A stretch of DNA of 37,741 bases from Candidatus Liptonbacteria bacterium (GTDB lineage Bacteria > Patescibacteriota > Minisyncoccia > UBA6257 > Colwellbacteraceae), in contig JAHXGO010000002.1 of NCBI GenBank assembly GCA_019923695.1, forward strand, positions 1-37,741, given 5' to 3'. This document shows, piece by piece, positions 5,515 to 35,076 of the stretch (the stretch's first letter is position 1; the number at the start of each line of letters is the position of its first letter). The notes beneath the pieces were generated by a model. It was not told where the DNA came from. It did no database searches and was given only the letters and a program-made list of their open reading frames with translations. The position numbers were made by a program, and so were the translations under genes.

Positions 5515-6852
5515 TTACTTCAGCCATTTCCCATATTGACGAGGCAATAATTGCCCTGCCTTTGCCGGTTCTGCCATTATTTTAAAACTGATTTTCTCCA
5601 TTCTGACGCCTTGAGAGCCTTTAACAAGAATCAAATCATTCGGTTTGATTATTTTTTCAATATTTATTTTTGCTTCATCAGAGTTTGCAAAACTTATGAC
5701 CAAGGGGCAATCTATGACCAAGGGGCAATCTATGACCAAGGGGCAATCTGAAATATTTTTTTTTATAAATTTTGTTTTTCTCGCGCCTTCAGCTATAAAT
5801 TTTGCTTTTGTCCCAACCGTAATCAAAACATCAACAAAACCAGCAGCTAATTTTCCAATATTTTTATGAGCTTCAACAGAATACTCCCCCAATTCTAACA
5901 TATCTCCTAAAATCGCCACCTTTCTTTTTGCTTTCAAATCTTTCAAAACATCAAGCGCTTCTTTTGCTGAAGATGGCGAAGTATTATAAGAATCATCAAT
6001 AAGATAACAAGATTTAATTCCTTTAATAAGTTTTAATCTCCCGGGCAAAGATTGATAAAAAGGAAAAATATCAGCCATTTCCTTAAGAGTAAAACCTAAA
6101 ATTAACCCCACGGCCGCGCTAACTGCTGTCGCGTAAGCCTGGCCCTTGCCAAAAACTCCGTCAATTTTAACTGTTACGCTTTGTTTTTGATATTGTAATT
6201 TAAAAATAATACCTAAAGGATTATACCCCTGACAACAATTTTTAAAACCGGTAATTCTGACATCAGCGCCTTTATTAAATCCGTAAGTTAAAACTTTTGC
6301 TTTTGTTAAATTTTTTGAGGAAAGAACCGTTTTGTCGTCAAAATTTAATATCGCGAAACCTTTTTCCGATAAACTTGAAATTATTTTTGCATCCTCTTCA
6401 GCCACTTCTTTTGGACAACTATAAAATTCAACATGAACCGGCACATCCGAAGAAGAAACAAAAACACCAATCAAAGGACTAGTAACTTGCAGTAAATAAT
6501 CAATGTCTTTTGGCTTATCGGCGCCATACTCTAAAATAAGAAATTTAGGGTAATCGCTTTTAAAAATAATTTTAAAAAAAGCCAAAAAAAACACTTTTAA
6601 CCAAAATAAAAACCCGCCGGTTTGATAATACTCGCCTAAAATAGTTAGAGGTAAGCCGATTTCATTGTTAAAACTTCCGCGACTTGCCCGAACTTTGTTC
6701 TTAGCTTTCAAAACATTGTATATCGCCTCTTTGGTTGAACTTTTGCCAACCGTGCCTGACACCCCTATAATTATCGGTTTATATTTTAAAATAATTAATC
6801 GGCTAAAGTGTTTTAAAAGAAAAATTAGAATTTTTAATAAAATTTTTCGCAT
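5515..6852 (-). CDS. murF: UDP-N-acetylmuramoyl-tripeptide--D-Ala-D-Ala ligase (MurF-type Mur ligase)
   Basis: GTVGKSSTKE, NNEIGLPLT, IDDSYN, LGDMLELG, LVKGSQ; dcw context. Confidence 0.92.
   Translation of the reverse strand: MRKILLKILIFLLKHFSRLIILKYKPIIIGVSGTVGKSSTKEAIYNVLKAKNKVRASRGSFNNEIGLPLTILGEYYQTGGFLFWLKVFFLAFFKIIFKSDYPKFLILEYGADKPKDIDYLLQVTSPLIGVFVSSSDVPVHVEFYSCPKEVAEEDAKIISSLSEKGFAILNFDDKTVLSSKNLTKAKVLTYGFNKGADVRITGFKNCCQGYNPLGIIFKLQYQKQSVTVKIDGVFGKGQAYATAVSAAVGLILGFTLKEMADIFPFYQSLPGRLKLIKGIKSCYLIDDSYNTSPSSAKEALDVLKDLKAKRKVAILGDMLELGEYSVEAHKNIGKLAAGFVDVLITVGTKAKFIAEGARKTKFIKKNISDCPLVIDCPLVIDCPLVISFANSDEAKINIEKIIKPNDLILVKGSQGVRMEKISFKIMAEPAKAGQLLPRQYGKWLK
5695..5748. repeat. Perfect 3 x 18-bp tandem repeat inside murF
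   Basis: (tatgaccaaggggcaatc)x3, encoding (DCPLVI)x3. Confidence 0.98.
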
Positions 6853-6925
6853 TTGTTAAAATAAATAAGCTATGGCAAAACAAAACTTAAGATATTCAAA
6901 TCTTATTTTATTATAACAATTTAGA

Positions 6926-7024
6926 TTAATATAGCGAATAATAAGCCGCTCAATATGTTGAGCTCGAGACTCGCTATAACAAACTGTAAATATATTATAT
7001 CGAACCTACGGTTCGCTATAATAT
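6926..7024. repeat. Array of 12-bp palindromic cores at 24/21-bp spacing
   Basis: Cores at 6926, 6950, 6971, 6992, 7013 (e.g. ttaatatagcga, tcaatatgttga, tcgctataacaa). Confidence 0.75.
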
Positions 7025-7100
7025 ATTTGACAATCTTCATTACACAACGCTTTGCTACTATGACACATCATAGCGCTATGCTATAGCATAGATATTATTA

Positions 7101-7138
7101 TTACTATTATATTTTCCGATCGGAAAGTATAATAGTAA
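7101..7138. repeat. 38-bp near-perfect palindrome
   Basis: ttactattatattttccga|tcggaaagtataatagtaa, one mismatch, no loop. Confidence 0.85.
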
Positions 7139-7367
7139 AGTAGAATTAAAATAAAAAATATACTCAATGAAAAACTGCCTAAAAGTCTTTTGGCCGGGTA
7201 AGCGCGGGCAGTTTTTCTAACAGGGCCAACCCCGTTAAAAATCCCCGCCAAAAACGGGGCAATCTACCTTTGGTAGTCTACTTCTTTTATTATTTATTTT
7301 ACCACCTCTTTCCCAAAATATTAGTTCTGTATTAATCTATATCAAATCTAATAATTCGTTTGATTCA

Positions 7368-8972
7368 CTATAACCTATCAGGCGAAACTTCGTAATAATT
7401 TAAAATAAACTGCGCCAATTCTCTAAAAGCCGGCATAATCGTCTGACTTGCAAAAATAGGTCCTTTCCCTTTATCCATTCTAATTAAAGCAATAAAACGC
7501 GGGTTATAAGCCGGAGCAAAACCAACAAAAGTATGAATTAATTCGTCAGTATATCCTCCTTTTTGAAAATCGGGAATCTGGGCTGTTCCAGTTTTTCCTG
7601 CTACGCTATAACCACTAATTTGGGCTGACCTAATTTCGTCAACCTTTGCAATCATCATTTCTGTTACCTGACGGCTGGTTTCTTCACTGATTACTCTTCC
7701 TAAACACTCTTGATTGCCCGCTAACAAATGAGGCTTGACCATTAACCCATTATTAGCAATTACATTTATAGCAGTTAAAAGTCTGATAGGAGTAACAGCA
7801 ATGCCTTGACCAAACGAAGCTGTCGCCAAATTAATATCTCTGCCATCTCTTAAGGTCCTTAAGTTGCCAGTTACTTCTCCCGGTAAATCAATGCCTGTTT
7901 TTTTATTTAAGCCAAAATTTTTCAAATAATCATAAAATACGCTCTTGCCTATTTGTTGGGCAACAAAAACAATACCGGTATTAATAGACTTTTCAATAAT
8001 TTTGCTCATATCGGTTTTTCCGTAAGCTCTAAAATCCCAATTTCTAATAGTTCTGTTGTTTAAAGTCACATAACCTTTATCGACGAATTCGGTATAAGGA
8101 GTAATTTTTCCAGTTTCAATGCCAATTGCCATTGTGATAGGTTTTAAAACCGAGCCAGGCTCATAAACACTTTGAACCGCCGGATTCAAAAAATTTTTGA
8201 CTTCAAGTTCTCCGAAATTATTAGGATCAAAATTAGGTAAAAAACTCATCGCTAAAATTTCTCCATTTTTCGGATTCATCACAATTATCATTCCAGATTC
8301 AGCTTTATGTTTAGCAACCGCGTCTCCCAAAATTTTTTCAGCTGCCGCCTGAATATTTCTATCTATGGTTAAATATATATCCTCCCCTTTTTTCGGAGGA
8401 ACTATTTTTTCACCCAAAATAACTCCGGGCTCGCCTTTTAAAATATGATTATAAAAAGATTCAATACCATAACGACCGGAATTTTCAGAAACAAAACCAA
8501 GGAGATGACTGGCCAATCTTTCGTTTGGATAAAAACGATAAGGCTCTTGGCTTATACCAATTCCTTTTAAATTAAGTTTTTGAATTTCTTGAGCTTGTTC
8601 TAAAGAAGCTTTTCTTAATATTATTTCATAAGGGTCTTTTTTATTTGAAATCCTTGATAAAATTTTTTTTTCTTCAATGTTTAAAACTTTTGCTAAAATT
8701 GAAGCGGTCTCATTAATGTTAACAATGTTTTTTGGAACGGCAAAAATTAAAGGATAATATTTTTTTACCGCCACTGGCACAGAGGCTTTATTTTTATCCG
8801 TGAAAAAAATATTTCCCCTTTCCGGTTCAAGGTCAAAAGCTAAACGCCGATGAGCTTCGGCTCTAACCATAAAATAATCTCCTCTGTTCAGTTGAAGATG
8901 ATAAAAATTCGCCAAAAGAACGGCATAAACTAAAGTAAAAATTATAAAAATCAGCGAGAAGCGAATTCCCAT
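7368..8972 (-). CDS. ftsI: Class B penicillin-binding protein (FtsI-like)
   Basis: YEPGSVLK (SxxK), KSIN (SxN), KTGTAQ; N-terminal TM segment; follows mraZ-rsmH-ftsL. Confidence 0.92.
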   Translation of the reverse strand: MGIRFSLIFIIFTLVYAVLLANFYHLQLNRGDYFMVRAEAHRRLAFDLEPERGNIFFTDKNKASVPVAVKKYYPLIFAVPKNIVNINETASILAKVLNIEEKKILSRISNKKDPYEIILRKASLEQAQEIQKLNLKGIGISQEPYRFYPNERLASHLLGFVSENSGRYGIESFYNHILKGEPGVILGEKIVPPKKGEDIYLTIDRNIQAAAEKILGDAVAKHKAESGMIIVMNPKNGEILAMSFLPNFDPNNFGELEVKNFLNPAVQSVYEPGSVLKPITMAIGIETGKITPYTEFVDKGYVTLNNRTIRNWDFRAYGKTDMSKIIEKSINTGIVFVAQQIGKSVFYDYLKNFGLNKKTGIDLPGEVTGNLRTLRDGRDINLATASFGQGIAVTPIRLLTAINVIANNGLMVKPHLLAGNQECLGRVISEETSRQVTEMMIAKVDEIRSAQISGYSVAGKTGTAQIPDFQKGGYTDELIHTFVGFAPAYNPRFIALIRMDKGKGPIFASQTIMPAFRELAQFILNYYEVSPDRL

Positions 8973-9244
8973 TGGGGGTTTTTATCTTTTATTAAACCTT
9001 TTTCTTGAGCTAATATTTCTAAATTCTTGATATCCGTCAACCCAAATAAATTATTATTAAGTTCGGCATTTGAAAGCTTTAAATCCGCAATTTTATTCCC
9101 AAGCGAGTTTATTTCATGACGGTAAGTGACAGAATAAGCATAAAAAAAGACTGAAACAGCAAGGCCGACCAAAACCCCTCCTCCAAAAAATAAAATAAGG
9201 GTATCTAAAAAAGTTTTTTTTCTACTTGGTTGAATAACGGTCAT
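8951..9244 (-). CDS. FtsL-like bitopic coiled-coil protein
   Basis: One TM segment plus heptad Leu region, at the ftsL position between rsmH and ftsI. Confidence 0.7.
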   Translation of the reverse strand: MTVIQPSRKKTFLDTLILFFGGGVLVGLAVSVFFYAYSVTYRHEINSLGNKIADLKLSNAELNNNLFGLTDIKNLEILAQEKGLIKDKNPQWEFASR

Positions 9245-9271
9245 TTTTTTATTAATTATTTTAATTTTTCA

Positions 9272-10141
9272 TTAATTAATTTTTATCGCCCTTAATTTGG
9301 CTGATCTGCTCCGAGGATTATTTCTGATTTCCAAAAAATTTGGAACTAAGGGTTTTTGATTTATTAATTCAGCTTCTTCTTTTTGAACCATTTTTTTAAA
9401 TTGTTCTTTGACTATTTTGTCTTCAAGCGACTGAAAAGTAATAATCGCCACCCGGCCGCTTTTTTTAATAATTTCAGGCAAAATTGCTAAAACTTCCACT
9501 AAATTTTTCAATTCATTATTAATATAAATCCTAAAAGCCAAGAAAGTTTTTGTGGCCGGATGTATTTTCCCTCTTTTTGGGACAACCGACTCTATGACTC
9601 TAACTAAATCTTCTGTGGTTTCAATCCATTTTTTTCTTTCTGTTTTAAAAATAGCTTCGCTTATTCTTCCGGCATAACGCTCGTCGCTTAATCTAATAAT
9701 CTCAAAAATTTCTTGTCTACTTAATCGTCTTAAAGCTCTGTAAAGAGGTTCTGCTTTTTTATCGTAAGTCATTAGTAGCGGCTCGTTTCTCAAAAAACTA
9801 AATCCCCTTCCTGATTTTTCAAGTTGTTCAGAAGAAACGCCAAGATCCAATAAAAGACCGTCAGCTTTCGATAGTTTCTTTTTTTTCAAAACTTCTTTTA
9901 GTGCCGTGTAATTAGCTTTAACTAAAATAATTTTTGAACTATGATTCTGCCATTTTAATTTTGCCGCTCTTATCATTTCTTCGTCTAAGTCCAACCCCAA
10001 AAATATGCCATTAGGAGAAATTACTTTTAAAATTTCAAACGCATGTCCTCCTCCATCAATAGTGCCATCAATAAAAAAATCGCCGGGCTTAGGATTCAAT
10101 ATATTTATTACTTCTTGTAAAAGAACTGGTTTATGATTCAT
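9272..10141 (-). CDS. rsmH: 16S rRNA m4C1402 methyltransferase RsmH
   Basis: HKPVLL, DGTIDGGGHA, DLGVSS, NPRSRSAKLR. Confidence 0.97.
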   Translation of the reverse strand: MNHKPVLLQEVINILNPKPGDFFIDGTIDGGGHAFEILKVISPNGIFLGLDLDEEMIRAAKLKWQNHSSKIILVKANYTALKEVLKKKKLSKADGLLLDLGVSSEQLEKSGRGFSFLRNEPLLMTYDKKAEPLYRALRRLSRQEIFEIIRLSDERYAGRISEAIFKTERKKWIETTEDLVRVIESVVPKRGKIHPATKTFLAFRIYINNELKNLVEVLAILPEIIKKSGRVAIITFQSLEDKIVKEQFKKMVQKEEAELINQKPLVPNFLEIRNNPRSRSAKLRAIKIN

Positions 10142-10181
10142 ATTAAAATTTTACATTGTTATTTTTGATTTTATGAAATTT

Positions 10182-10613
10182 TTATATTCCCAGCGCCGAC
10201 AATTTTTCCGCTATTTCGTCAGAGGCGTTCTCGGTTTTTTCTTTGTATATTCTCCAGCTTTCTTTGTCCCAAATTTCAATTCGATTGTACAAACCGGCGA
10301 CTACAGACTCCTTTTCTAAATTAGCGTATTGTCTTAAATATTCAGGAAGCAAAACTCTGCCCTGATTATCCAGCTCACAATCAACAGCCCCGGCAAGCAT
10401 AAGTCTGACAAAAGCCCTTGAATTAGCTTGAGCTAAGGGCAAAGCAATAAGTTTTTGGGCTAAAACTTCCCAATCTTTTGAGGTAAAAATAAAAAGACAT
10501 CGATCTAATCCTTTAGTCACAATTGCCCCTTCTAAAAGCTGACTTCGAAATTTAACAGGAACGGCAATTCTACCTTTTAAATCAATATTGTGTTTGTATT
10601 CGCCTATAAACAT
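10182..10613 (-). CDS. mraZ: Transcriptional regulator MraZ
   Basis: MFIGEY, DLKGRI, DNQGRV, RIEIW. Confidence 0.97.
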   Translation of the reverse strand: MFIGEYKHNIDLKGRIAVPVKFRSQLLEGAIVTKGLDRCLFIFTSKDWEVLAQKLIALPLAQANSRAFVRLMLAGAVDCELDNQGRVLLPEYLRQYANLEKESVVAGLYNRIEIWDKESWRIYKEKTENASDEIAEKLSALGI

Positions 10614-10655
10614 ATTAAAAATTTTTTAATTTTACAGGGGTTTAATAGTTTAAAG

Positions 10656-10813
10656 TTATCCACAGAAATAACCAGTTCTCCACATAGTTATCCACAATTC
10701 CCCACTTTTATTAGAATCCTATTCTATTCCTTGTCTTAAGTCAAAGTTTAAACAAAACCCTAAAAAAATGAGTATTTTAAAGGATTTTTAAACAATTTAT
10801 AAAATTATCCACA
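10656..10813 (-). promoter_or_regulatory. GTGG (MraZ-box-like) repeats overlapping DnaA-box consensus sites upstream of mraZ
   Basis: CCAC at 10660, 10680, 10692, 10702; exact TTATCCACA at 10656, 10688, 10805. Confidence 0.7.
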
Positions 10814-18986: not shown

Positions 18987-19172
18987 TTACCAAGACGCTT
19001 TTTTAACTCCTGGGATTAAACCCTTAGAAACCATTTCTCTAAAACAAATTCTGCAAAGATTAAAATCCCTAATATATCCTTTTTTTCGACCACACTTAAA
19101 ACACCGCCTCACTATACGAGATGAAAACTTTGGTTCTTTTTTTGCTCTTGCGATTACTGATTGTTTTGCCAT
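18987..19172 (-). CDS. rpsZ: 30S ribosomal protein uS14, zinc-binding type Z
   Basis: RCFKCGR...LCRICFRE...PGVKKASW. Confidence 0.97.
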
Positions 19173-19181: not shown

Positions 19182-19217
19182 ATTTATTCTCCAGCCATAG
19201 ACTACCCCTAGGCCATA
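19182..19217. repeat. Two units of the 18-bp repeat family, intergenic
   Basis: Reverse complement tatggcctaggggtagtc and tatggctggagaataaat. Confidence 0.65.
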
Positions 19218-19226: not shown

Positions 19227-19826
19227 TTATTTTTTAAATGGTACTCCTATTTCTTTATAAAAATCAATTGCTTTATTACGATTCCCAGTATTCAAAGCAA
19301 CCGTCACCTGTAAACCAAAACTTGCTTTTGAAATTTCCTGATTTATTTCCGGAAAAACTACCTGCTCTTTAAAGCCAATATTCAGGCCTCCATTTTTATC
19401 AACGCTTTTCAAATCAATCCCTTTAAAATCTCGAACTCGAGGTAAGACCGTATTGATTAATCTTTTAAGAAAATCATTCATCCTTTTTCGCCTTAAAGTA
19501 ATTTTAAGCCCAACAACCTCTCCCTCTCTAACTTTAAAACCAGCTATGGATTTTTTCGATTGAGTGTCTGTTGGTATCTGGCCAGTAATCAAACTTAGTT
19601 CTTTTTTAATTTCCGGTAAAATTTTCTCGTCAAACTGGGAGTTTAGTTGACGGGACTTACCTATCCCAACAGAAACAATAATCTTTTCAATTTTAACCCC
19701 TTTTAAAGAGGCCTCTGTCGAAGATAAGTTTTTAATAAGACCAACATCAAGCGACATATCACTCGATATATTTAATGTCTTATCTACTATATCAGTATTC
19801 TTTTTTTTCTTCTCTTTTTTTATCAT
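19227..19826 (-). CDS. rplE: 50S ribosomal protein uL5 with atypical N-terminus
   Basis: KIEKIIVSVGIG, ITGQ, SIAGFKVREG, LPRVRDFKG. Confidence 0.96.
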   Translation of the reverse strand: MIKKEKKKKNTDIVDKTLNISSDMSLDVGLIKNLSSTEASLKGVKIEKIIVSVGIGKSRQLNSQFDEKILPEIKKELSLITGQIPTDTQSKKSIAGFKVREGEVVGLKITLRRKRMNDFLKRLINTVLPRVRDFKGIDLKSVDKNGGLNIGFKEQVVFPEINQEISKASFGLQVTVALNTGNRNKAIDFYKEIGVPFKK

Positions 19827-21213: not shown

Positions 21214-21978
21214 TTATTTTTCAGAAAACATTTTTCCTTTATAAATCCAAACCTTGACACCTAAAGTCCCATAAATTGTAAAGGCGGTTATTTCGCCATA
21301 ATCAATATTCGCTCTTAAAGTAGTAAGAGGAAGATTACCAGCTTTAAGCCATTCTCTTCTGGCTATTTCTGCTCCATCAAGTCTGCCTGCAACCTCAATC
21401 TTAGCCCCTTCAACAATTTTATAAGCCATCATTTCGCTCAAATATTTTTTAATTGTTTTTCTAAACTTATATCGTTTTTCTAAATCACTAGCAATGTTTT
21501 GAGCGATAATTTGGGCTGAACATTCATTTCTTGATAATTCTAAAACACTTAAATTAATGCCTACGGTTGTCTTATGTCGATTATCCTGTTCATTATGACC
21601 AGAAGATGGTCTGTGACCAGAAAATAATCTATGGCTAGAGGATAACTTATGATTAGAGGACGGTCCAATATCAATATTTTTCCTAAAGGCAAAAACTTCT
21701 TTGTTTATATTTTTAGTTAATTCTTCAATTCCTTTGCCGCCTCGACCAATAATTAAACCGGGCTTTAAAGCCTTAATCATAATCTTACAAACTCCCGGAA
21801 CTCTCTCTATTTCAATTGAAGCAACACCAGCTTCTTTTAAACGCTTGTTTATAATTTTTCTAATTAAAATATCTTCTTGAAGAAGATAAACGCTAATTTT
21901 TGAATTGCTAAACCAGCGAGAATCCCAATTCTTTAAACTTCCTAATCTTAACAATGTTGGTTTAATTTTTTGCGCCAT
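21214..21978 (-). CDS. rpsC: 30S ribosomal protein uS3 with repeat insertion
   Basis: MAQKIKP..LRLG, KPGLIIGRGG, GRLDGAEIAR, GTLGVKVWIY. Confidence 0.97.
   Translation of the reverse strand: MAQKIKPTLLRLGSLKNWDSRWFSNSKISVYLLQEDILIRKIINKRLKEAGVASIEIERVPGVCKIMIKALKPGLIIGRGGKGIEELTKNINKEVFAFRKNIDIGPSSNHKLSSSHRLFSGHRPSSGHNEQDNRHKTTVGINLSVLELSRNECSAQIIAQNIASDLEKRYKFRKTIKKYLSEMMAYKIVEGAKIEVAGRLDGAEIARREWLKAGNLPLTTLRANIDYGEITAFTIYGTLGVKVWIYKGKMFSEK
21594..21665. repeat. Four degenerate 18-bp units inside rpsC
   Basis: tatgaccagaagatggtc, tgtgaccagaaaataatc, tatggctagaggataact, tatgattagaggacggtc. Confidence 0.9.
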
Positions 21979-22046: not shown

Positions 22047-22586
22047 TTAAACAGCTTTTCGACGAAAAACACGACGGTAAAAATTAGGTTTTTCCGGTTT
22101 GTCAATCCTCTGTTCTTTTCCTTCTTCTTTTTTCTCTATTTGCAATTCTTTCTTTTCGGATTGTCTTTTAACCGCAGACAAAGACTTTTTAGTAATTTTT
22201 TTGTCCTTTTTTTTGCCAACAAATTTAAACCTACTCTTCTTTTCGGAAGATTCTGATAAAATAAGAATAACATGACATCTTTGTTTATGTAAGGGTGTTG
22301 CCCGGCCTTGAGCCCGAGGCAAAGACCTTTTAAGTCTTATTCCTTTATCAACCAAAATATTTTTAATATAAAAATTTTCGATTTTTATTTCTTTATTTTT
22401 ATTATTGACAACATTAGCGATAGCGCTTCTTAATAATTTTAATAAAGAAGCAGCCGCTCTTTCTTTTCTAAACATCAATTCCGCTTCAGCGTCTCCAACC
22501 GGCATACCGATAATAATCCGACTAACGCTTCTAGTTTTTCTCGGAGTTATATCTAAGTTTGATAATTTTACTTTAATTTCTTTCAT
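22047..22586 (-). CDS. rplV: 50S ribosomal protein uL22 with Lys/Glu-rich C-terminal extension
   Basis: ITPRKTR, LLRSAIAN, PRAQGRA. Confidence 0.96.
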   Translation of the reverse strand: MKEIKVKLSNLDITPRKTRSVSRIIIGMPVGDAEAELMFRKERAAASLLKLLRSAIANVVNNKNKEIKIENFYIKNILVDKGIRLKRSLPRAQGRATPLHKQRCHVILILSESSEKKSRFKFVGKKKDKKITKKSLSAVKRQSEKKELQIEKKEEGKEQRIDKPEKPNFYRRVFRRKAV

Positions 22587-23769: not shown

Positions 23770-24062
23770 TTTGATATTGATATAGTTTGACCTTTTTTTA
23801 AAGTGACAATGGCTTTTTTTAAAAAAATTAACTTTTTTGATTGTCCTTTAGTTATAAATTTTCCTTTAGCCATTGATTGTCTTTTAGTTACACAAATTAT
23901 ATTTATCGAAACCGGTTCAACTTTATATTGTTTTTTTATCTCTTTTTTTATCTCATTCTTATTAGCATTTTTATCAACTAAAAAAACATATTTATTTAAA
24001 CCGCCCATTAATTGGGCCTTTTCACTCAAATATATTTTTTGCGCTAACTTAACTTGTTGCAT
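23766..24062 (-). CDS. rplW: 50S ribosomal protein uL23 with repeat-derived loop
   Basis: SEKA, NKYVFLV...ANKNEIK, KKAIVTL. Confidence 0.94.
   Translation of the reverse strand: MQQVKLAQKIYLSEKAQLMGGLNKYVFLVDKNANKNEIKKEIKKQYKVEPVSINIICVTKRQSMAKGKFITKGQSKKLIFLKKAIVTLKKGQTISISK
23839..23892. repeat. Three 18-bp units inside rplW
   Basis: Reverse complement tgtaactaaaagacaatc, aatggctaaaggaaaatt, tataactaaaggacaatc. Confidence 0.85.
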
Positions 24063-24831
24063 GATAATGATTATCTATAATAGAAATCGCATCCTTGTCT
24101 AAAAGAATATGTTTATAACGAAGTAAATCATAAACATTCAAAGAACGAGGGTCAAGACTTTTTGTTCTTAAAATATTTTTAGCTGCCCGAATCAAGTTTT
24201 TTTGGCCAACAGACAACCCTTGACCAAGAGGCAACTCATTAACTCCAGCCGGAATTATTAAAACGCTTATTTTCTGATTTTTATGGCCAACGGACAATCC
24301 ATGGCCGAAGGACAATTTTTTTACCCTTGCTAAAGATAGTTCTGTCTTGGTAAGAGAAGACGCTTGTTTTTGTTGTTTCTCTCTGGGAACAAAAATTTTT
24401 TTTAAAATTTCAGCAACCAATTTCGTTTTTGGTTCGCTAATTTTTAATTGGTCAACTATTTTTATTTCACTATCATTAAATTTTTTTGCCAACGTACTAA
24501 AAATAGCGGCTTGCTTCATTTTTTTGTTAATTTTTATTTTATAGTTCCGGTCTTTTGTCGGTCCGTGAGTAACACCTCCTCCTTTCCAAATAGGAGAACG
24601 AATCGAACCATGTCTTGCCCTGCCTGTTCCTTTTTGACGCCAAGGTTTTTTTCCCCCTCCTCTTACTTCTCCTCTTCCTTTAGAATGAGCTAAAATTTTA
24701 CGGCTATTTTGAGACTGAACATTTAAAGCCTGATAAACAAGGTCCGGATTCCAAGGATATTGAAAAATACGATCTGGAAGATCGGTCTTTCCAATAATTT
24801 CTCCTTCTATATTGTATAAATCAGTATTCAT
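24049..24831 (-). CDS. rplD: 50S ribosomal protein uL4 with insertions
   Basis: RGEVRGGGKKPWRQKGTGRARHGS. Confidence 0.98.
   Translation of the reverse strand: MNTDLYNIEGEIIGKTDLPDRIFQYPWNPDLVYQALNVQSQNSRKILAHSKGRGEVRGGGKKPWRQKGTGRARHGSIRSPIWKGGGVTHGPTKDRNYKIKINKKMKQAAIFSTLAKKFNDSEIKIVDQLKISEPKTKLVAEILKKIFVPREKQQKQASSLTKTELSLARVKKLSFGHGLSVGHKNQKISVLIIPAGVNELPLGQGLSVGQKNLIRAAKNILRTKSLDPRSLNVYDLLRYKHILLDKDAISIIDNHYHATS
24201..24317. repeat. Two separate 2 x 18-bp insertions inside rplD (24201-24236 and 24282-24317)
   Basis: tttggccaacagacaacc+cttgaccaagaggcaact; tatggccaacggacaatc+catggccgaaggacaatt. Confidence 0.9.
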
Positions 24832-24835
24832 AAAA

Positions 24836-25255
24836 CTATATAAAAATTTTTATTTTTACTCCCCTAGCTCCCGGTAAAGGTCCTTTTAGGGCCAAAATTC
24901 TATTCTTATCATCCCATTCAATAATCTTCTTTTTTAAAGTGATTGTTTCGCTTCCGGTTCGACCGGCCATTTTTCTTCCGGGCCAAACTCTTTGAGAGGC
25001 AGTATCGCCGATAGAACCCGGAGCCCGAAGTCTGTTTTTTTGACCGTGAGTTTTCGGTCCACCCCTAAACCCATAACGTTTAACAACTCCTTGAAACCCT
25101 TTTCCCTTAGAAACACCAGTAATTTTTAATATTTTTCCTACCTCAAAATTTGTGTCTTGAACACTATCCTCAATTTTTACCAATGTAACCGGAACTACAT
25201 CGTCTTTGATAAAAATCTGACTCATATTTAATTTTTTAGCGGTAATGTAATTCAT
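24836..25255 (-). CDS. rplC: 50S ribosomal protein uL3, shortened (139 aa)
   Basis: VVPVTLV, SKGKGFQGVVKR, RAPGSIG, KMAGRTG. Confidence 0.95.
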   Translation of the reverse strand: MNYITAKKLNMSQIFIKDDVVPVTLVKIEDSVQDTNFEVGKILKITGVSKGKGFQGVVKRYGFRGGPKTHGQKNRLRAPGSIGDTASQRVWPGRKMAGRTGSETITLKKKIIEWDDKNRILALKGPLPGARGVKIKIFI

Positions 25256-27037: not shown

Positions 27038-29176
27038 CTATTTTTTACCTTCTATAATTGCCGACTCAACATTTTTTGGAACACGCTCATAATTAGAAAA
27101 CTCCATTGTAAAAACTCCTCTTCCTTGAGTCATTGAGCGCAAATGAGTCGCATAACCAAACATTTCAGATAAAGGAACCATTGAATCAATAACTTTAATA
27201 TTATCTCTGTCGCTAATAGAATCAATTCTCCCTCTTCTTGAAGAAAGGTTGCCAGCAACATCTCCCAAGAAATCAGACGGAATAATCACCTGAAGTTTCA
27301 TTATTGGTTCCAAAATAACAGGTTTGGCATTCTTTACCGCCTCTTGTAAGGCAATAGAAGCCGCGATTTTAAAAGCTATTTCAGAAGAATCAACATCATG
27401 AAAAGAACCATCATAAAGTGTAACTTCCATATCAATTAAAGGATAGCCGGCAACCATTCCTTTGCTCATTGATTCTTTAACGCCTTTTTCAACCGCGGAA
27501 ATAAATTCTTTTGGAATTACCCCTCCTTTAATCGCGTCAATAAAAATAAATCCTTTCCCACTTTCCAGAGGAACAACTTTTAACCAAACATGTCCATACT
27601 GACCTCGACCGCCAGACTGACGAATATATTTTCCTTCTGCCTTAGAAGTTTCTTGAATCGTTTCTTTATAAGCGACTTGCGGGCGTCCGACATTAGCGTC
27701 AACAACAAATTCTCTTCTCATTCTTTCAACCAAAACATCAAGATGTAATTCTCCCATACCGGAAATAATCGTATCCCCAGTCTCTAAATCTCCCGAAACT
27801 CTAAAAGTAGGATCTTCTTCCATAAGCCTTCTCAAAGCCAAGCCCATTTTTTCTTGGTCAGCTTTTGTTTTCGGAGAAATTCTTTGAGAAATAACCGGTT
27901 CTGGAAAAACGATTTTTTCTAAAATAATAGGATTTTCCACATCGCATAAAGTATCTCCTGTAGTCGTATCTTTAAGTCCGACTAAGGCGCAAATATCACC
28001 CGTATAAACTTCTTCCACTTCTTCTCTTTCATTAGCGTGCATTCTTAAAATTCTGCCCGCTCTTTCTTGATTCTCTTTTACGGCATTTAAAATATAACTG
28101 CCTCTTTTAAGGACGCCGCTGTAAACCCGAAAATAAGTAAGAGAACCGACAAAAGGATCAGCGGCAATTTTAAAAGCTAAAGCTGAAAATGGTTCACCGT
28201 CTTCAGGTCTCCTCTCGACTTCACTTTCGTTTTTCAAATTAATTCCTTTAACAGGAGGTAAATCAACAGGCGAAGGCAAATAATCTATTACCGCATCCAA
28301 AATCAACTGAACCCCTTTGTTTTTTAAAGCAGAACCGCAAAGAACTGGAACTAAATTATTATTTAGGGTCGCTTTTCTTAAAACTCTTTTTAAATCGTCT
28401 TCTCCAATTTCCTTTTTTTTGGACTGCCCTTCGGCCGCAGATTGTTCTTCGATCATAGTAAGATAATCATTAAGTAATTCCTCGTCATTCTCAACCACTT
28501 TTTCAACTAAGATAGAACGCATCTGAATTGCTTGTTCCATAAGTTTCTCCGGGATATCATAACTTACTATTTTTTCGCCATGTTCCCCCTCAAACCTGAA
28601 AGCTTTCATTTTTATAAGATCTATCACCCCTTCAAATTCCGATTCGTTTCCAATCGGCAATTGAATAGCAACAGCGTTTGGAGTCAACCGTTCAATAATT
28701 GATTTAAAACTTTTTTCAAAACTTGCCCCTATCCTGTCTATTTTATTAATAAAACAAATTCTCGGAACTTTATAATCATCGGCGTAACGCCAATTAGTTT
28801 CTGATTGTGGCTCAACTCCAGCTACTCCGTCAAAAACAACAACCGCTCCATCAAGAATTCTTAAAGAACGCTTAACCTCAACAGTAAAGTCAATATGACC
28901 CGGAGTATCAATAAGATTTATTCTGTGTTTATTTTCTTCGCCTTCTTCAATATAACTCGGGGCCCAAAAACAAGTGGTGGCAGCAGCAGTAATAGTAATC
29001 CCTCTTTCTCTTTCTTGTTCCATCCAATCCATAACCGCGGCCCCCTCATGAACTTCGCCTATTTTATAAGAAGTACCGGTATAAAAAAGAATTCTTTCAC
29101 TAACTGTTGTTTTACCAGCGTCAATGTGAGCGATTATACCTATATTTCTATATTTTTCTAACGGATATTTTCTCAT
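27038..29176 (-). CDS. fusA: Elongation factor G
   Basis: [43 protein letters not shown]. Confidence 0.99.
28422..28457. repeat. Two 18-bp units inside fusA
   Basis: Reverse complement tatgatcgaagaacaatc+tgcggccgaagggcagtc, encoding [12 protein letters not shown]. Confidence 0.82.
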
Positions 29177-29267: not shown

Positions 29268-29319
29268 GATTATCTTTTGGCCAGAGGTTGTCCCTTTACC
29301 CTTTGACCAGAGGAAAACC
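29268..29319. repeat. 18-bp family units in the rpsG-fusA spacer
   Basis: gattat-cttttggccagagg-ttgt-ccc...cctttgaccagagg-aaaacc. Confidence 0.7.
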
Positions 29320-29783
29320 TACCATGAAAAATGACCAAAAACGCGATTAGATTCAGCCATCCGGTGAATATCCTGCTTTTTTTTAATAGCAGCTCCTTCG
29401 TTTTTAGAAGCTTGTAAAAGTTCTTCGACCAATTTTTCAGTTATTCCCTTGCCCTTTTTTGACCGAGCAGATTCAATAATCCATTTGCAAGCAAGCATAA
29501 ATTTTCTTTCAGGCCGAACCTCTCTGGGAACCTGATAATTGGCTCCTCCAATTCTCTTTGAAGCCACTTCAACAAGCGGCATAGCATTTTGAACCGCTTT
29601 TTCAAAAATCTCAATAGGATTATGTTTCTCCTTTTCCAAAACTTTAAAAGCCAAATAAAGGTTTTTTTCCGCAATAGATTTTTTCCCGTCAATCATCAAA
29701 TAATTAATAAACCTACTAACAGCTATATTATTATAAAGCGCGTCTGGTTTGCGTTCTCTTTTATAATTTCTTTTTTTTCTCAT
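29319..29783 (-). CDS. rpsG: 30S ribosomal protein uS7
   Basis: MIDGKKSIA, RIGGANYQVP, HRMAESN. Confidence 0.98.
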   Translation of the reverse strand: MRKKRNYKRERKPDALYNNIAVSRFINYLMIDGKKSIAEKNLYLAFKVLEKEKHNPIEIFEKAVQNAMPLVEVASKRIGGANYQVPREVRPERKFMLACKWIIESARSKKGKGITEKLVEELLQASKNEGAAIKKKQDIHRMAESNRVFGHFSW

Positions 29784-29832
29784 AAGGAATAATAATAAAA
29801 TTTTATAATTTTAATATATTGAATCTAAACTA

Positions 29833-30255
29833 TTATCGAGACTCTTTTTTTGGCGCTTTCGCCCCATATTTACTTCTTTGTTGACGACGATTAGAAACAC
29901 CTTCAGTATCTAAAATACCACGAACAACATGATATCTAACTCCCGGCAAATCTTTAACCCTGCCGCCACGAATTAAAACAACTGAATGTTCTTGAAGATT
30001 GTGTCCTTCTCCGGGAATATAAGCGGTAACCTCCATACCATTAGTTAAACGAAGACGGCAAACTTTTCTTAAAGCAGAGTTTGGTTTTTTTGGAGTAACC
30101 GTAAAAACTTTTAAACATACCCCTCTTTTAAAAGAAGAATAAGACTTAACGGGTTTATTTCTCAAAACATTAAAATATCGTCCAAGAGCTGGAGTTTTTG
30201 TTTTTTTAGTTATTTTCCGTCTACCTCTTTTTACCAATTGATTAATCGTAGGCAT
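29833..30255 (-). CDS. rpsL: 30S ribosomal protein uS12
   Basis: [28 protein letters not shown]. Confidence 0.99.
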
Positions 30256-30262
30256 ATTTATT

Positions 30263-30292
30263 AATATAAAAGAAAAATAATGTTTGTGTCAA
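30263..30292 (-). promoter_or_regulatory. Probable sigma70 promoter of the str operon
   Basis: Minus strand TTGACA (30292-30287)-N18-TATATT (30268-30263), only 7 nt from the rpsL ATG. Confidence 0.55.
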
Positions 30293-30342
30293 TCCTGAAA
30301 AGTCTAATAGGCTTTTACTTTATCAAAAACTTCTTTAAGAAA

Positions 30343-30963
30343 TCAATAAAACAACGACCCAGTGATTATTCTGAAAATAATATTAGCTAAAGGCCCTAAG
30401 ATAAACATTGCGGCTAAAAACGCAAATAAAATTCCAAAAATTCCCAATCTTTCTGAAATCTGCCTAAAAAATTTAGGAAACAAATCTTCAAATATTTTTG
30501 AGCCATCAAGCGGAGGAAGGGGCAATAAATTAAATAAAGCCAAAAAAATATTTATATAAATAACAAATCCCCAAAAATCCCAAAACCCAGCTGGCGCATA
30601 AATACTTGGTTCTAAAAATCTTAAAATTAATCCAAAAAAAACCGCAATTATCAAATTAGTTAAAGGCCCGGCAGCCGCCACTTTTAAAGAGCCGTATCTT
30701 TGATCTTTTAAAGCATAAGGATTATAAGGCACCGGCTTAGCCCAACCAATAAAAACTCCAGAATAAAAAAGCAAAAAAAGAGGGACAATTACCGTTCCTA
30801 ATGGGTCTAAATGCGCTAAAGGATTAAGAGTTAAACGGCCTTCTCTTTTAGCGGTGTCATCTCCTAAGGCATAAGCTGCCCAAGCATGAGCATATTCATG
30901 AAAAATAGCTGACGCAACAATTACCGCATATATTAATAATTTAATCACATTAGGATCGTTCAT
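30343..30963 (-). CDS. Site-2 protease (M50) family membrane metalloprotease
   Basis: FHEYAH, AAAGP, FNLLPLPPLDG. Confidence 0.95.
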   Translation of the reverse strand: MNDPNVIKLLIYAVIVASAIFHEYAHAWAAYALGDDTAKREGRLTLNPLAHLDPLGTVIVPLFLLFYSGVFIGWAKPVPYNPYALKDQRYGSLKVAAAGPLTNLIIAVFFGLILRFLEPSIYAPAGFWDFWGFVIYINIFLALFNLLPLPPLDGSKIFEDLFPKFFRQISERLGIFGILFAFLAAMFILGPLANIIFRIITGSLFY

Positions 30964-31160
30964 TAAAATATTATATCAGAGTTTTGTTTTGTCGTAAAAT
31001 AAAGTTTTTATAGATTAGATGACACATTACTTAATATATTGAATTTAAAGCTCTCCATAGTGAACTATTTAATTCAATATAATCACAACTTTTGATGATT
31101 CAAAAAATCTTTATTATTTAGCCAAGCGTTAGTTAAAATGAAAATAATAAAACTTATCAA

Positions 31161-31862
31161 CTAAATTCTAAGTTCTCTTAAAATTAGAATAGGAGTCTGA
31201 CAATTAGATTGAGTGGCTGGATTATCTTTTAAAATTTCCAGCATTAATTTTTCCTTACCTATTAAATCCCGACTTTTTCCTAAAATGTTCCCCCCTAAAT
31301 CATTGACATCAGCCACCAGAAAAAAAAATCCATATTTTTCTTTGAAGTTTTGACAAAGATTGTCGCAATTTTTTAAACCGAGAATACCCATCTCACCATA
31401 TTGGGGAAATATTTTGTCATAAAAACCATCAATTTGAGAAATCTGATGGCCAGCCACCCAATAAAAAACACCATAAATTTTAAAAACTTTACAGACCCCA
31501 GCCAAAATTGAAGCCAATAAAATTCTTGGCAAACCAGCCAAATTAATGGCTAACTGCATTTTTAAAGGATTGCCAACCGAAAAACCGGCTGTTGTCTTTT
31601 TAACAAACCCTGAAAGAAAAGAAGCCCAAAAACCTATTTTTAAATCTTTTTTATAAACAACTTTTCCTTCTAAGATTGAAATAATTTTTTGACCCAAAAC
31701 CACAATATCCCCTTTTTCTAAATAGGCCAAAACATAATTTTCTAAAATTTCTGCCAAAGAATCTTTTTCGCTAATAAAATGTGTTTTTATTGGATAGCGA
31801 GCCCACCTTTGGCCCGAAACTTCAATTATTAGTTTTTTACCAGGATTAGGTTGAAACTCCAT
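31161..31862 (-). CDS. F420:gamma-glutamyl ligase-like (CofE-fold) protein
   Basis: PIKTHFI...D, KIISILEG, IDG, ADVNDLGG, DNPATQ..QTP resemble the F420_ligase family; the true substrate is unknown. Confidence 0.7.
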   Translation of the reverse strand: MEFQPNPGKKLIIEVSGQRWARYPIKTHFISEKDSLAEILENYVLAYLEKGDIVVLGQKIISILEGKVVYKKDLKIGFWASFLSGFVKKTTAGFSVGNPLKMQLAINLAGLPRILLASILAGVCKVFKIYGVFYWVAGHQISQIDGFYDKIFPQYGEMGILGLKNCDNLCQNFKEKYGFFFLVADVNDLGGNILGKSRDLIGKEKLMLEILKDNPATQSNCQTPILILRELRI

Positions 31863-32358
31863 TAATTTTATTTTAATCTTTTTAAGCTAAAATTAAAAAT
31901 CTATACATAAGTCCATAATATTCTGGAAAACCCAAAATTTTTTATTAAATATTATATCAAACTTTGATTGTTTAAAAAAAAGCGTGTATAAGGCTAACCA
32001 AACTTATGTCTCTAAAACCATTTAAATTATTAATCTTACAACGATATTATAAAATGGTTTATTGAATCTTCCTTACGAAGTTCAATTTTACAAGAAATAA
32101 AAAATAATGTAAAATTCAAAAATCAAAAATTTCTTTCGTTAGTTTTCAATTTTCAATTTTCAATAAATTTTACAATTTTATAATTTCCAAACTTACGGTT
32201 ATTCTTATAAAGTTAAACTTCAATAGACTTCTCCAAAAAATCACTAATTTGTTAAGAAATAAAAATGTTTAGAAATTGGAAATTCGAATTATCAAGATAT
32301 ATCTTATTGTAAAACTCTATAAAACTAAAGTTCTAAAGAATACAATATATTTATAACA

Positions 32359-32533
32359 TTATCTGTAAGAATCTCGAGTGTTATTTACACTTTTAATTTT
32401 ATATTCAAGGACAGGTTGTCTTGAAGAACATCTTACAGATGCGTTTTTGCCGCTGGAGCAAAAATATTCTGGTTCTGAAAGACAATCTGTCCGAAAATGT
32501 AAACAACATTATGAAATTTTACAGATTATGTAA
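32359..32533. repeat. Hairpin-forming dispersed element, copy 2
   Basis: Near-identical to 4381-4564 except a 9-nt shorter central segment and a few substitutions. Confidence 0.85.
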
Positions 32534-32538
32534 TCAAT

Positions 32539-32574
32539 AAAAAATCCCTCCTTTTTTAATACGGGAGGGATTTT
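32539..32574 (-). terminator. Intrinsic terminator
   Basis: aaaatccctcc...ggagggatttt stem with U-tract on the minus strand. Confidence 0.7.
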
Positions 32575-32595
32575 GGTTAAGCAATAAAAAGAATT

Positions 32596-32634
32596 TTATT
32601 TCTTTTTTTTCTTAGCCACTTTCTTTTTTGCCAT
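32596..32634 (-). CDS. Candidate 12-aa Lys-rich micro-ORF MAKKKVAKKKKK
   Basis: ATG GCA AAA AAG AAA GTG GCT AAG AAA AAA AAG AAA TAA, followed about 20 nt later by a terminator. Confidence 0.45.
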   Translation of the reverse strand: MAKKKVAKKKKK

Positions 32635-32964
32635 AAAAAGTTTTTTATATATAGTGAGGCTAATAAAAGTTGCCGACCATTCAATTCCATTAGCTCTTGT
32701 TTAATTTTAGAACAAATAACTTTTAAAAAAAATGTGGATAACTTCTATTGATCTTAAAACTTTAATTTATCAATTAATAAAGTAAAAATTTTTGTTAAAA
32801 TAATGATGTCCTGCCTTTTTTCTTCTATACTAACTTTGTTTTAGATAAAAAACGAAGGCTCAATAACAACAAAATAAATTTTTTAGAAAAGATAAAATTT
32901 TAATTTTTATAACTAAAGCTCCTTAATTTTTAATTAAGATTTTCGGAAGTTTTTCACTGAAGTT

Positions 32965-33915
32965 TTAAGACAAAATTTGGATTTCTTCTTCCAGTTTAAT
33001 GTCAAACTGTTTTAAAACCTCTGATTTAACAAGGTTGATCAAATAAATGACATCATTAGAAGAAGCGTTATCAATATTAACAATAAAATTTGAATGTTTG
33101 TCGGAAATCATCGCGCCACCTTGACAGACTCCCTTAAGCCCAGCCTTATGTATAAGATAAGCGGCAGGAATAACTGGGAAAGGATCAGTTTTAATTACTT
33201 CGGCGAATAATTTTCGTTGATCCAAAGGAACTTTTTCAATCGCAACATTTTTAAAAACGCTTCCGGCGTTTGGATATTCCAAGGGTTGTTTTTCTAAACG
33301 ATAAGAAAAATTTTTTTCGATTTCTTTTTTCATAAGCTCTTTATCAGCCGAAGTAAAGGATAAAGCCGCCTTTAAAATAATTTCATTATCGTTAGTTTTA
33401 AAAATACTTGAACGATAGTTAAACTCGCAATCTTTATTTTTTCTTATAACAAAATTATCAGGATTTTTTATTTCAAGACTTAAAACCTCATAAACCGATC
33501 CTTTTATTTCTTTTCCGAAGGCGCCAGCATTCCCTCTTATAGCCCCGCCTAATGTTCCGGGCAAACCAGCTGCCCACTCTAAACCGGACAAGCTTCTTTC
33601 CTGCGAATAATTAACCAAGTTATTCATTAAAACGCCAGCGCCTGCTTCAATTAAATAATCGTCAATTAAATTTATAAAATCAAAATTTATTTTCAAAACC
33701 AAACCATTAAATCCCTCATCGCTAAATAAAACATTTGTCCCGCCGCCTAAAATAAAAATCTTTAAGTCTTTGTTTTCAGAAAAAAGTTTTTTAAATGTTT
33801 TAAAAACTTCTTTTATATCCTTAATATCAGAAACCTCGAAAAAAAAACGCGCCGGACCACCAATGCGATAATGAGAATAATCTTTTAATAAGATATTTGT
33901 TTTAAAATTAATCAT
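32965..33915 (-). CDS. murB: UDP-N-acetylenolpyruvoylglucosamine reductase
   Basis: RIGGPA, LGGGTNVL, GLPGTLGGAIRGNAGA, AGSVFKN, HSNFIVN. Confidence 0.97.
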   Translation of the reverse strand: MINFKTNILLKDYSHYRIGGPARFFFEVSDIKDIKEVFKTFKKLFSENKDLKIFILGGGTNVLFSDEGFNGLVLKINFDFINLIDDYLIEAGAGVLMNNLVNYSQERSLSGLEWAAGLPGTLGGAIRGNAGAFGKEIKGSVYEVLSLEIKNPDNFVIRKNKDCEFNYRSSIFKTNDNEIILKAALSFTSADKELMKKEIEKNFSYRLEKQPLEYPNAGSVFKNVAIEKVPLDQRKLFAEVIKTDPFPVIPAAYLIHKAGLKGVCQGGAMISDKHSNFIVNIDNASSNDVIYLINLVKSEVLKQFDIKLEEEIQILS

Positions 33916-33954
33916 TAAGGTTGACGAAAATTCAACTTAGAAATAAATAATGCT

Positions 33955-34104
33955 TTATTTTTTGGTTTTAATATCATTATTCCTTAAATTAAATTTGTAT
34001 ATTTTAAATACTTTATTCCGAAGCCTATAAATAAAATTATTAAAAACAAAAAAAACAAAATAGAAGAAAATTATTACTAAAATCGCGATTAATATATTAA
34101 ACAT
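33955..34104 (-). CDS. Possible 49-aa small membrane protein
   Basis: MFNILIAILVIIFFYFVFFVFNNFIYRLRNKVFKIYKFNLRNNDIKTKK; could arise by chance in AT-rich DNA. Confidence 0.3.
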   Translation of the reverse strand: MFNILIAILVIIFFYFVFFVFNNFIYRLRNKVFKIYKFNLRNNDIKTKK

Positions 34105-34275
34105 AATTCTATTTTTTAGCAAAACGAAACTTCAATATAATGCTAAAATCTAATTTTACAAGAAAACTATATCAAATAACTGTCGATGATGAAATACCCC
34201 CTGCTTAAAAAGAATAAGAAAAAAACTCAACCCCCTTGTCCTATTTAAAAATAAATTTTTAACAGAATCAAAAAA

Positions 34276-35076
34276 TTAATGATGGTTATTACTATTACGG
34301 CCCAGTCTTTTTAATAATTCGCCGGCTGCTCTTAATTCAGCTTCTTGCTTTGATTCCCCTAATCCCTCGGCTTTTATCTCATTATCAAAATAAACTCCAA
34401 CTTTAAAAATCTTTTCATGATCAGACCCCATTTCGTCCAAAACTTTATAAGTCGGAGTAATTTTATATTCGCTTTGAATAATTTCCTGAAGCAAGCTTTT
34501 AGCGTCTTTATAAAGACCTTTTTCTTCTATCTCCGGAAGGTATAAAATAAGAAAGCTATCAACAAAATATTGAGCCTTTTCATATCCCTGGTCAAGATAA
34601 ATCGCGCCAATTAACGCTTCAAAAGCATTTGCCAATATTGTTTCAAACGAACGATTATTCATTTGAACCTCTCCCTTAGAAAGTAAAATATAATCTTTTA
34701 AAGAAAGACTTTCCGAAGCCTTAAAAAGCATTTTTGAATTCACTAAAGACGCCCTTAAAAGAGTAAGTTTCCCCTCTTCAAGTTGAGGATATTTTTCAAA
34801 AAGATAGCGGGTGACAATAAGCTCTAATACAGCATCGCCCAAAAATTCTAACCGTTCATTATGAGGAAGTTTCCAAAAAAAGTTTTCATTCAAATACGAA
34901 CGATGAGTCAGTGCTTCTTTTAATAAGTCTTTATTATTAAAATTTGTTCCTATTTTTTTTTCTAAAACTGATAAATCCATAAACTGTCCGTTGACCAAAG
35001 GTTGTCCATTAGTCAAAAGTTTTCCATTAGCTAAAGGTTTTGTTTTTTTATTTGATAATTTAATTTTAATTTTCAT
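34276..35076 (-). CDS. rnc: Ribonuclease III
   Basis: [19 protein letters not shown], dsRBD ([14 protein letters not shown]). True start is either 35076 (overlapping the nusB stop) or 34980. Confidence 0.97.
34982..35035. repeat. Three 18-bp units at the rnc 5' end
   Basis: Reverse complement tttagctaatggaaaact, tttgactaatggacaacc, tttggtcaacggacagtt. Confidence 0.88.

Follow-up and report, generated by a model that had tools for sequence, protein, structure and literature searches.

A genome of 0.42 Mb, about 85% of which lies in open reading frames (ORFs), should offer selfish DNA little room. How, then, does the same 18-bp DNA repeat come to lie inside the genes for MurF, EF-G and several ribosomal proteins of a groundwater bacterium of the candidate phyla radiation (CPR)? 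The question arises from the window analyzed here, the first 37,741 bases of contig C12 in the metagenome-assembled genome G000, which carries murF, the spc, S10 and str ribosomal-protein operons, tuf, fusA and rnc, nearly all of them on the minus strand. An earlier note on this DNA had described an 18-bp unit that recurs at nine sites in and between these genes. All nine sites are present at the positions claimed for them, and when they are laid out in 18-base lines the unit can be seen at each, in both orientations. Our analysis gives good support to a selfish, DNA-level, lineage-specific micro-repeat that survives inside genes by virtue of its six-codon length and five stop-free readings, turns over by whole units and afterwards decays. 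The fuller reading that we favor, with a probability of roughly 60%, is a lineage-specific family of selfish, codon-compatible micro-repeats that is seeded at new sites by copy-choice, that is, slippage in trans.

Genome G000 comprises 422,137 bases in 22 contigs (33% G+C, 95.9% complete, 0.06% contamination), in which a simple longest-ORF picker found 384 ORFs, which give a coding fraction of 0.853. From 17 units of the window we built a position matrix, and its iteration over the whole genome yielded the consensus TATGGCCAAAGGACAAYC. This matrix matches G000 164 times at 14 bits or more and 99 times at 18 bits or more. Twenty dinucleotide shuffles gave means of only 4.65 (maximum, 10) and 0.45 (maximum, 2) at the same two thresholds. 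Permuting the codons within each ORF gave means of 37.3 (maximum, 40) and 23.5 (maximum, 24), and a synonymous-codon shuffle that keeps every protein gave 67.6 (maximum, 81) and 32.3 (maximum, 35); both of these codon controls leave intergenic arrays intact. Matches are thus commoner in the genome than in codon-preserving shuffles. The drop from 164 matches to 67.6 under protein-preserving shuffling places the signal in the nucleotides and not in the encoded peptides, and the earlier proposal that conservation acts at the nucleotide level is borne out.

These controls rule out a chance pattern, and for an assembly artefact we found no support, the sole caution being that G000 is a metagenome bin of 22 contigs. 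Protein look-ups showed the same array-bearing proteins on contigs of several other assemblies, from the same or a sister lineage, and of the words sampled from a 9.9-kb stretch, 86-92% recur in six sequencing runs that come from two studies. An assembler, moreover, cannot produce decayed copies. We regard the probability that the family is artefact or chance as close to nil.

Arrays were delimited by extending seeds of at least 14 bits in 18-base steps and accepting neighbors at 6 bits or more. The genome contains 115 such arrays with 200 units in total, namely, 67 singles, 29 doublets, 9 triplets, 4 arrays of four units, 4 of five and 2 of six, among which the matrix threshold admits about 5 to 10 chance matches. 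About 3.6 kb of G000 (200 x 18 bp) therefore consists of one repeat, mostly within genes. The genes that bear arrays include those for ribosomal proteins, EF-G, MurF, aminoacyl-tRNA synthetases and primase; ribosomal proteins, EF-G and MurF were named from orthologue alignments, and GluRS, YchF, DnaG, PheT, an SMC-like protein and RNase III from Pfam matches. Ninety-two arrays lie in ORFs, 15 are intergenic and 8 straddle gene ends, and the genic share (92/115) is near the coding fraction of 0.85. The intergenic arrays are longer, with 40 units in 15 arrays versus 144 units in the 92 genic arrays. A preference for essential or highly expressed genes, which the earlier note had suggested, did not hold up: array density is nearly equal in the window (0.29 per kb) and in the genome (0.27 per kb), so ribosomal and highly expressed genes are not favored targets.

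Are the units additions to these genes or inherited parts of them? The nearest genome within reach (L001, also G041 and G013) is of a different genus within the GTDB family, with an L2 protein that is 73% identical. Alignments with orthologues identify the units as insertions, with gaps at the array positions both in the window genes and across the genome. In L001 the gaps opposite the arrays amount to 31 amino acids in uS3, 20 in uL23, about 37 and 12 in uL4 and 13 in EF-G, a protein that is otherwise 76% identical to the fusA product of the window. Exactly the 18 amino acids of the murF array are missing from MurF orthologues, among them P0138, which comes from the L001 genome. When all 92 array-bearing ORFs were compared by tblastn with 355 kb of G041, 55 alignments spanned the array site. 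At 26 of these sites (14 of 21 multiunit and 12 of 34 single-unit arrays) at least 60% of the array residues faced a gap, and at a further 11 (4 multiunit, 7 single) the gap was partial.

The earlier note had also proposed that the inserts form new loops, and structure models agree, predicting low-confidence loops within otherwise folded proteins. In the AlphaFold2 model of MurF, with a mean predicted local distance difference test (pLDDT) score of 92.4, the only segment below 50 is residues 366-382, the array. In the uL4 model the first array (residues 175-180) is likewise predicted at a pLDDT below 50, and the second scores 67-79.

The same unit is met in several readings. The readings DCPLVI, LSxGH and MTKGQS-like were all found as described earlier, yet the count of three frames was too low, as five of the six frames are in use. 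Among the 92 genic arrays, 32 are read as MAKGQS, 22 as LSFGH, 16 as DCPLAI, 14 as WPKDN and 7 as YGQRTI. The sixth frame, which reads IVLWP and then a TAR stop, accounts for a single array, against an expectation of one in six (p = 2e-6). Even that array is a chance match, being a single match with no gap in the alignment to its orthologue. Of the genic arrays, 53 have the orientation of the gene and 39 the opposite one, which fits the 3:2 ratio of open frames (p = 0.67), and relative to the G-rich strand there is no bias (61:46, p = 0.18). Along the length of genes, successive tenths hold 16, 9, 6, 6, 5, 8, 7, 15, 11 and 9 arrays, an enrichment toward the ends. The frames, the orientations, the enrichment at gene ends and the longer intergenic arrays together point to insertion that is blind to genes, followed by purifying selection.

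We then asked whether this process is recent, a question for which our evidence on strain variation consists of protein alleles. Close strains and sister lineages do differ by whole units, as expected of the recent or ongoing process that the earlier note had envisaged. The first array of uL4 (two units, 13 amino acids) is present in alleles P0001 and P0121 and missing from P0002 and P0122, and these alleles otherwise differ by zero to four substitutions. GluRS has three units where a relative of about 90% identity has none, a difference of exactly 18 amino acids, and DnaG has one unit, exactly 6 amino acids, that is absent from a more distant relative in the same 90% cluster. YchF carries one or two units in conspecific strains, again a difference of exactly 6 amino acids. 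MurF has three units in the window and two in P0136, a relative 87-89% identical, at the same site, where they read GCPLVA GCPLVI, a difference of 6 amino acids. The three murF units of the window are identical at every base, which indicates recent local amplification or homogenization. An "18n+3" length rule, suggested by L4 and fusA, was rejected because MurF, GluRS and DnaG differ by exactly 18 or 6 amino acids.

Once in place, the arrays appear to change freely. Between conspecific strains, 5 of the 12 residues in the first two GluRS units differ, compared with about 7 of 470 elsewhere in the protein, and in uS3 of strain P0124, 5 of 6 substitutions fall inside the rpsC insert. This excess is roughly what unconstrained sequence would be expected to show. 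Mismatches to the consensus comprise 181 transitions and 54 transversions in units with up to four mismatches, and 81 and 23, respectively, in interior units. Decay by transitions alone, which we considered, was rejected as a bias of the first matrix; the unbiased ratio of 181:54 is ordinary. On inspection, decay showed no consistent direction along the arrays.

The unit itself contains symmetries that might be taken for function. The earlier note had described a 14-nt imperfect palindrome plus a linker; a palindrome centered on TGGCCA is indeed present with the linker ACAA, although it is weak, with six of seven consensus pairs complementary. The consensus also contains an internal 7-nt direct repeat (GGCCAAA/GGACAAY). 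Among 198 distinct units, Watson-Crick counts equal the independence expectation at all seven pairs, and we saw no compensatory change. Folding z-scores for six arrays were -0.46, -0.09, +0.88, -2.97, -1.30 (the rpsG-fusA spacer) and -0.13, so that five of the six fold no better than shuffles. With pair counts at expectation and unremarkable folding, the palindrome is not maintained in the copies.

These features bear on the possibility that the arrays are selected, whether as tandem protein-binding sites (iteron-like or involved in nucleoid organization) or for the peptides they encode. The TGGCCA palindrome and the internal direct repeat would suit a binding site, and the five open frames are used unevenly, from 32 arrays for MAKGQS to 7 for YGQRTI (chi-square p = 7e-4). 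Yet the units decay freely and lack covariation, the arrays follow no positional pattern relative to genes, and an array may be present or absent between conspecific strains. A selected peptide, for its part, is hard to reconcile with DNA that is read in five frames and with array loops of low model confidence. The earlier suggestion of a binding site under selection therefore fits poorly with the neutral decay, the presence-absence variation between strains and the absence of the family from relatives described below, and we consider selection quite improbable.

How far does the family extend beyond G000? Allowing up to three mismatches, the consensus matches G000 36 times and each of 52 other species of the GTDB family zero to two times. 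In 16 genomes from other families of the order the count is likewise zero to two, as it is for a reversed-pattern control. In the 355 kb of G041 (48% G+C) the matrix finds 17 matches at 14 bits or more, none of them in arrays, and the matches in G008, G069 and G045 are isolated single sites, not arrays. An origin from phage was considered and rejected, as no exact match to the unit occurs in viral contigs. A dispersed family of its own was not evident in G041, where 355 kb held no dominant 11-mer, by a method that would miss the family of G000 too. As for DNA of near-identical strains, metagenome contigs reached at most 50% identity and genome contigs 73% at best. In open-access papers and bioRxiv we found no description of repeats of this kind in CPR bacteria.

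The ends of the arrays bear on how new sites are founded. A linked variant, C3 together with G15, recurs at many loci (p = 2e-7), which argues for copying between loci. Upstream, a pyrimidine occupies flank position -2 in 80% of arrays and position -1 in 88%; downstream, T at +1 and A at +2 each reach 62%, as though the pattern of the unit continued for 2 nt. Beyond this flank consensus we detected no target-site duplication, and identical flanking 4-mers occur at 5 of 115 arrays, against 5.3 expected. Partial units show a weak excess on the 3' side (R5, p = 0.008; R7, p = 0.03). The GluRS array sits precisely at a codon boundary, between ATG and GAA, and flank and array alike end in TC; the 15-nt core in DnaG is bracketed by CTT. 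Neither of the two empty alleles, of GluRS and of DnaG, has any part of the unit.

We propose that whole 18-bp units enter the genome anywhere, in either orientation and regardless of genes. Because 18 bp equal six codons, such an insert never shifts the frame, and because five of the six readings are free of stops, selection would remove just the sixth reading and those inserts that land at intolerable positions. Surviving units would be translated as floppy hexapeptide loops or left in spacers. Slippage or unequal exchange would then add or remove units, producing arrays of one to six that may sometimes be rehomogenized, as in murF, and the arrays would decay through ordinary point mutations, chiefly transitions, the G+C content of the genome being 33%. 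For the seeding of new sites, which we infer, copy-choice is our leading model. A growing 3' end terminating in two or three pyrimidines would leave its template and pair with matching pyrimidines at a unit end of an array elsewhere; the displaced end would copy n units of that array and return to its point of departure. Copy-choice of this kind predicts additions of exactly 18n bases, the observed flank pattern, no target duplication and no bias of orientation or strand, and it needs no dedicated enzyme.

Several observations weigh against this reading or limit it. The junctions of filled and empty sites are known through protein comparisons. At 18 of the 55 sites spanned in G041 (3 multiunit, 15 single) the array faces no gap. 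The ungapped singles, several of which lie in motifs conserved in the orthologue, are probably chance matches, their number being of the order that the shuffles predict (about 5 to 10), and the three ungapped multiunit arrays fall in poorly aligned regions. About 10 arrays within 60 nt of an ORF start may sit outside the real coding sequence, rnc being an example. The L4 polymorphism measures 13 amino acids (39 nt), which is not a multiple of 18, and is accompanied by a further residue change. Units within an array share 11.67 of 18 positions, versus 10.49 in label shuffles (maximum, 11.0), a rise that speaks for local amplification but is so modest that slippage does not explain most array content. 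Finally, most arrays share one start and end register, whereas microhomology should allow other phases, for example at the AAA of the unit. Such fixed ends fit an enzyme better, and as the genome is 95.9% complete, the gene for one could be missing from it.

An enzyme is at the heart of the main rival explanation, in which the unit is a nonautonomous micro-transposon moved in trans by a Y1 (IS200/RAYT-like) transposase, RAYT standing for REP-associated tyrosine transposase and REP for repetitive extragenic palindrome, or by an unrecognized protein. Insertion behind a pyrimidine motif that is also the 3' end of the element would then build head-to-tail arrays. The 5' flank does resemble the 3' end of the unit, the whole-unit insertions in GluRS and DnaG are exact, and the combination of defined array ends, a single register and no detectable target duplication is that of IS200/IS605 elements. 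No mobilizing enzyme is encoded in the window, as the earlier note had stated. Elsewhere in G000, however, there is one Y1_Tnp (HUH) gene (G000:C7:8577-9275, 232 amino acids; 29-30 bits against a cut-off of 23), whose best NCBIfam match is REP-associated tyrosine transposase, albeit at 26 bits and below the cut-off of 80.

The surroundings of this gene tell against a role in moving the 18-bp unit. A 20-nt hairpin of its own, unrelated to the unit, stands in direct orientation on either side of the gene (G000:C7:8554-9325); a third copy lies reversed and in frame inside the gene, where it is read SYDVGNRKV, and the fourth in the genome, at C5:6573, is followed by 10 bases that match those next to the copy on the right of the gene. 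No 18-bp unit adjoins the gene, and where relatives carry a Y1 homologue (9 of 40), the 18-bp family is absent from all of them. The unit has no convincing hairpin or covariation, and a strand bias, typical of single-strand HUH transposition, is missing here. No other transposase family was found in G000. On this evidence we hold transposition in trans to be possible but rather unlikely. A bolder version, which we rate as somewhat more doubtful still, would make the 18-bp unit the smallest mobile element yet seen, inserted with fixed ends behind a pyrimidine motif by a dedicated enzyme, either a diverged HUH protein or a member of an unrecognized family. Were it true, the six-codon length and the five stop-free readings would be an adaptation to life inside genes in a genome poor in spacers.

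Tandem arrays of variable copy number in either orientation could also be produced by a telomerase-like or reverse-transcriptase-like process that copies an RNA or small-DNA template into DNA breaks; a templated or RT-like addition was among the options of the earlier note. The genome, at 95.9% completeness, has no match to RVT_1, nor to rve, DDE_Tnp_1, TnpB or Cas1. Break healing should also start and stop anywhere in the unit, whereas the array ends share one phase, and 67 of the 115 arrays are single units. We judge templated addition very improbable, and return to copy-choice as the preferred account.

Within the window itself, the matrix delimits 11 arrays, which together hold 25 units; three arrays of period 18 are detected by Tandem Repeats Finder, and the murF unit with up to three mismatches matches four times, against 0.02 expected. 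The murF array (5695..5748, plus strand, with murF itself on the minus strand) consists of three identical units read as DCPLVI three times (period 18, 3.1 copies and 100% matches in Tandem Repeats Finder; 24.6 bits per unit). Two decayed units (19182..19217, minus strand) occupy the spacer between the rplE stop at 19227 and the start at 19172 of rpsZ, a 61-amino-acid ORF at 18987-19172. The rpsC array (21594..21665, plus strand) has four decayed units that read as xLSxGH-like hexapeptides. In rplW, three units (23839..23892, minus strand) read TKRQSMAKGKFITKGQS. The rplD gene has two arrays on the plus strand, each of two units: array 2 (24201..24236), read LPLGQGLSVGQ and found in all four strain alleles seen, and array 1 (24282..24317), read KLSFGHGLSVGH, whose presence depends on the strain. 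The fusA array (28422..28457, minus strand) comprises two units with a 12-residue reading. In the rpsG-fusA spacer (29268..29319) two minus-strand units at 29268-29303 abut one plus-strand unit at 29302-29319.

The two remaining arrays call for more caution. Three units lie at the 5' end of the longest rnc ORF (34982..35035, minus strand). Their presence agrees with the earlier note, but their placement within the gene is doubtful: the call of the same gene in P0130 starts at M33, and the RNase III domain begins at residue 48, so the array probably lies upstream of the true start, in the leader and not in coding sequence. The last array, in the C-terminal tail of rplV (22159..22176, minus strand), is a single matrix match of 15.8 bits that aligns without a gap to the G041 orthologue; it is uncertain and may be a chance match.

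Some ribosomal proteins of the window are unusual in other ways. Next to array 1, uL4 (rplD, 24049-24831) has an extra, lineage-specific segment of about 24 amino acids (residues ~147-169) that shows no similarity to the unit and carries four substitutions in one strain. The uL22 protein (rplV, 22047-22586) is 179 amino acids long, with a Lys-rich C-terminal extension. These extra segments of uL4 and uL22 may be older, fully decayed arrays or unrelated inserts. For uL3 (rplC, 24836-25255), the longest ORF has just 139 amino acids, which we take to be short for that protein.

Elsewhere in the genome, two five-unit intergenic arrays have one 13-base word in common, which comes within about 10 bases after each (G000:C1:31938-31961 and C2:7629-7652) and could be a promoter or another small repeat. 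The 16S and 23S rRNA genes contain no unit at 10 bits or more, in 6.3 kb that are too short to be informative. Both carry large insertions, as judged from the long spans of their matches: 2,933 nt for a 1,533-position model in 16S (G000:C21:16331-19263) and 3,369 nt for 2,925 positions in 23S (G000:C20:5213-8581). A 78-bp (26-amino-acid) repeat, unrelated to the 18-bp family, makes up most of an ORF at G000:C21:13878-15059, where it stands in at least 12 tandem copies. ARAGORN reports a tRNA with anticodon TTA ("tRNA-Stop") at G000:C4 complement 4489-4562, which would read UAA and may be a true suppressor, an erroneous call or a hint of unusual decoding; the ORFs of the window decode normally under table 11.

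An insert of six codons with five of six frames free of stops shows one way for junk DNA to last in a streamlined genome. The repeat may explain part of the unexplained insertions in CPR proteins. Annotation is affected too: protein lengths are inflated by the arrays, and the call of a start codon can be displaced, rnc being a case in point. The polymorphisms between strains make the mechanism of insertion directly testable in existing groundwater metagenomes.

Which known repeats does the family resemble? Variable-number tandem repeats that arise by slipped-strand events change by whole units at a fixed locus, as MurF (two versus three units) and YchF (one versus two) do here. The unit of an ordinary repeat of that type is local to one locus, whereas the G000 unit has newly occupied empty sites in further genes, among them those of GluRS and DnaG. 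The tandem repeats of Borgs are closer in their effect on proteins: like the arrays of G000, they are in frame, fast evolving and divisible by three in length, and they give rise to disordered segments (PMC9879509). These amino acid tandem repeats (aaTRs) are reported there to "arise independently" at each locus, to be perfect and to be under strong selection; in G000, by contrast, one unit is common to 115 arrays at more than 100 loci, and most copies are decayed.

Dispersed palindromic families share other traits. REPs and their paired form, REPINs, are short, abundant and imperfectly palindromic, and G000 has a Y1 transposase gene. REPs are, however, extragenic and flank their RAYT gene, whereas 92 of the 115 arrays of G000 lie in ORFs and its Y1 gene is flanked by a different 20-nt hairpin. 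Miniature inverted-repeat transposable elements differ in that the G000 unit has neither terminal inverted repeats nor a target-site duplication, and no DDE-type transposase match was found. Rickettsia palindromic elements (RPEs) offer the best precedent for life inside genes, being selfish and inserted in frame in unrelated housekeeping genes, where they encode extra peptides compatible with the fold, according to a review (PMC10969869). They are described there as single palindromic elements of about 150 bp with one conserved peptide reading; the G000 unit has 18 bp, is tandem, is read in five frames and forms no stable hairpin.

The small dispersed repeats (SDRs) of cyanobacteria, for which the original paper is reportedly that of Elhai et al. 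2008 (Genome Res 18:1484), appear to come closest in size and arrangement. A secondary description (PMC2884548) gives them a length of about 20 bp, a variable number of tandem copies and possible mobility. On that description, the two share a size class, a mixture of dispersed and tandem copies and a mobilization that is unexplained. They differ in their hosts, large cyanobacterial genomes as opposed to a CPR genome of 0.42 Mb, and the family of G000 is distinguished by a unit of exactly six codons, by the location of about 80% of its arrays inside ORFs in five frames and by the lack of a convincing hairpin. To judge from the same secondary source, the cyanobacterial SDRs look like the nearest known kind.

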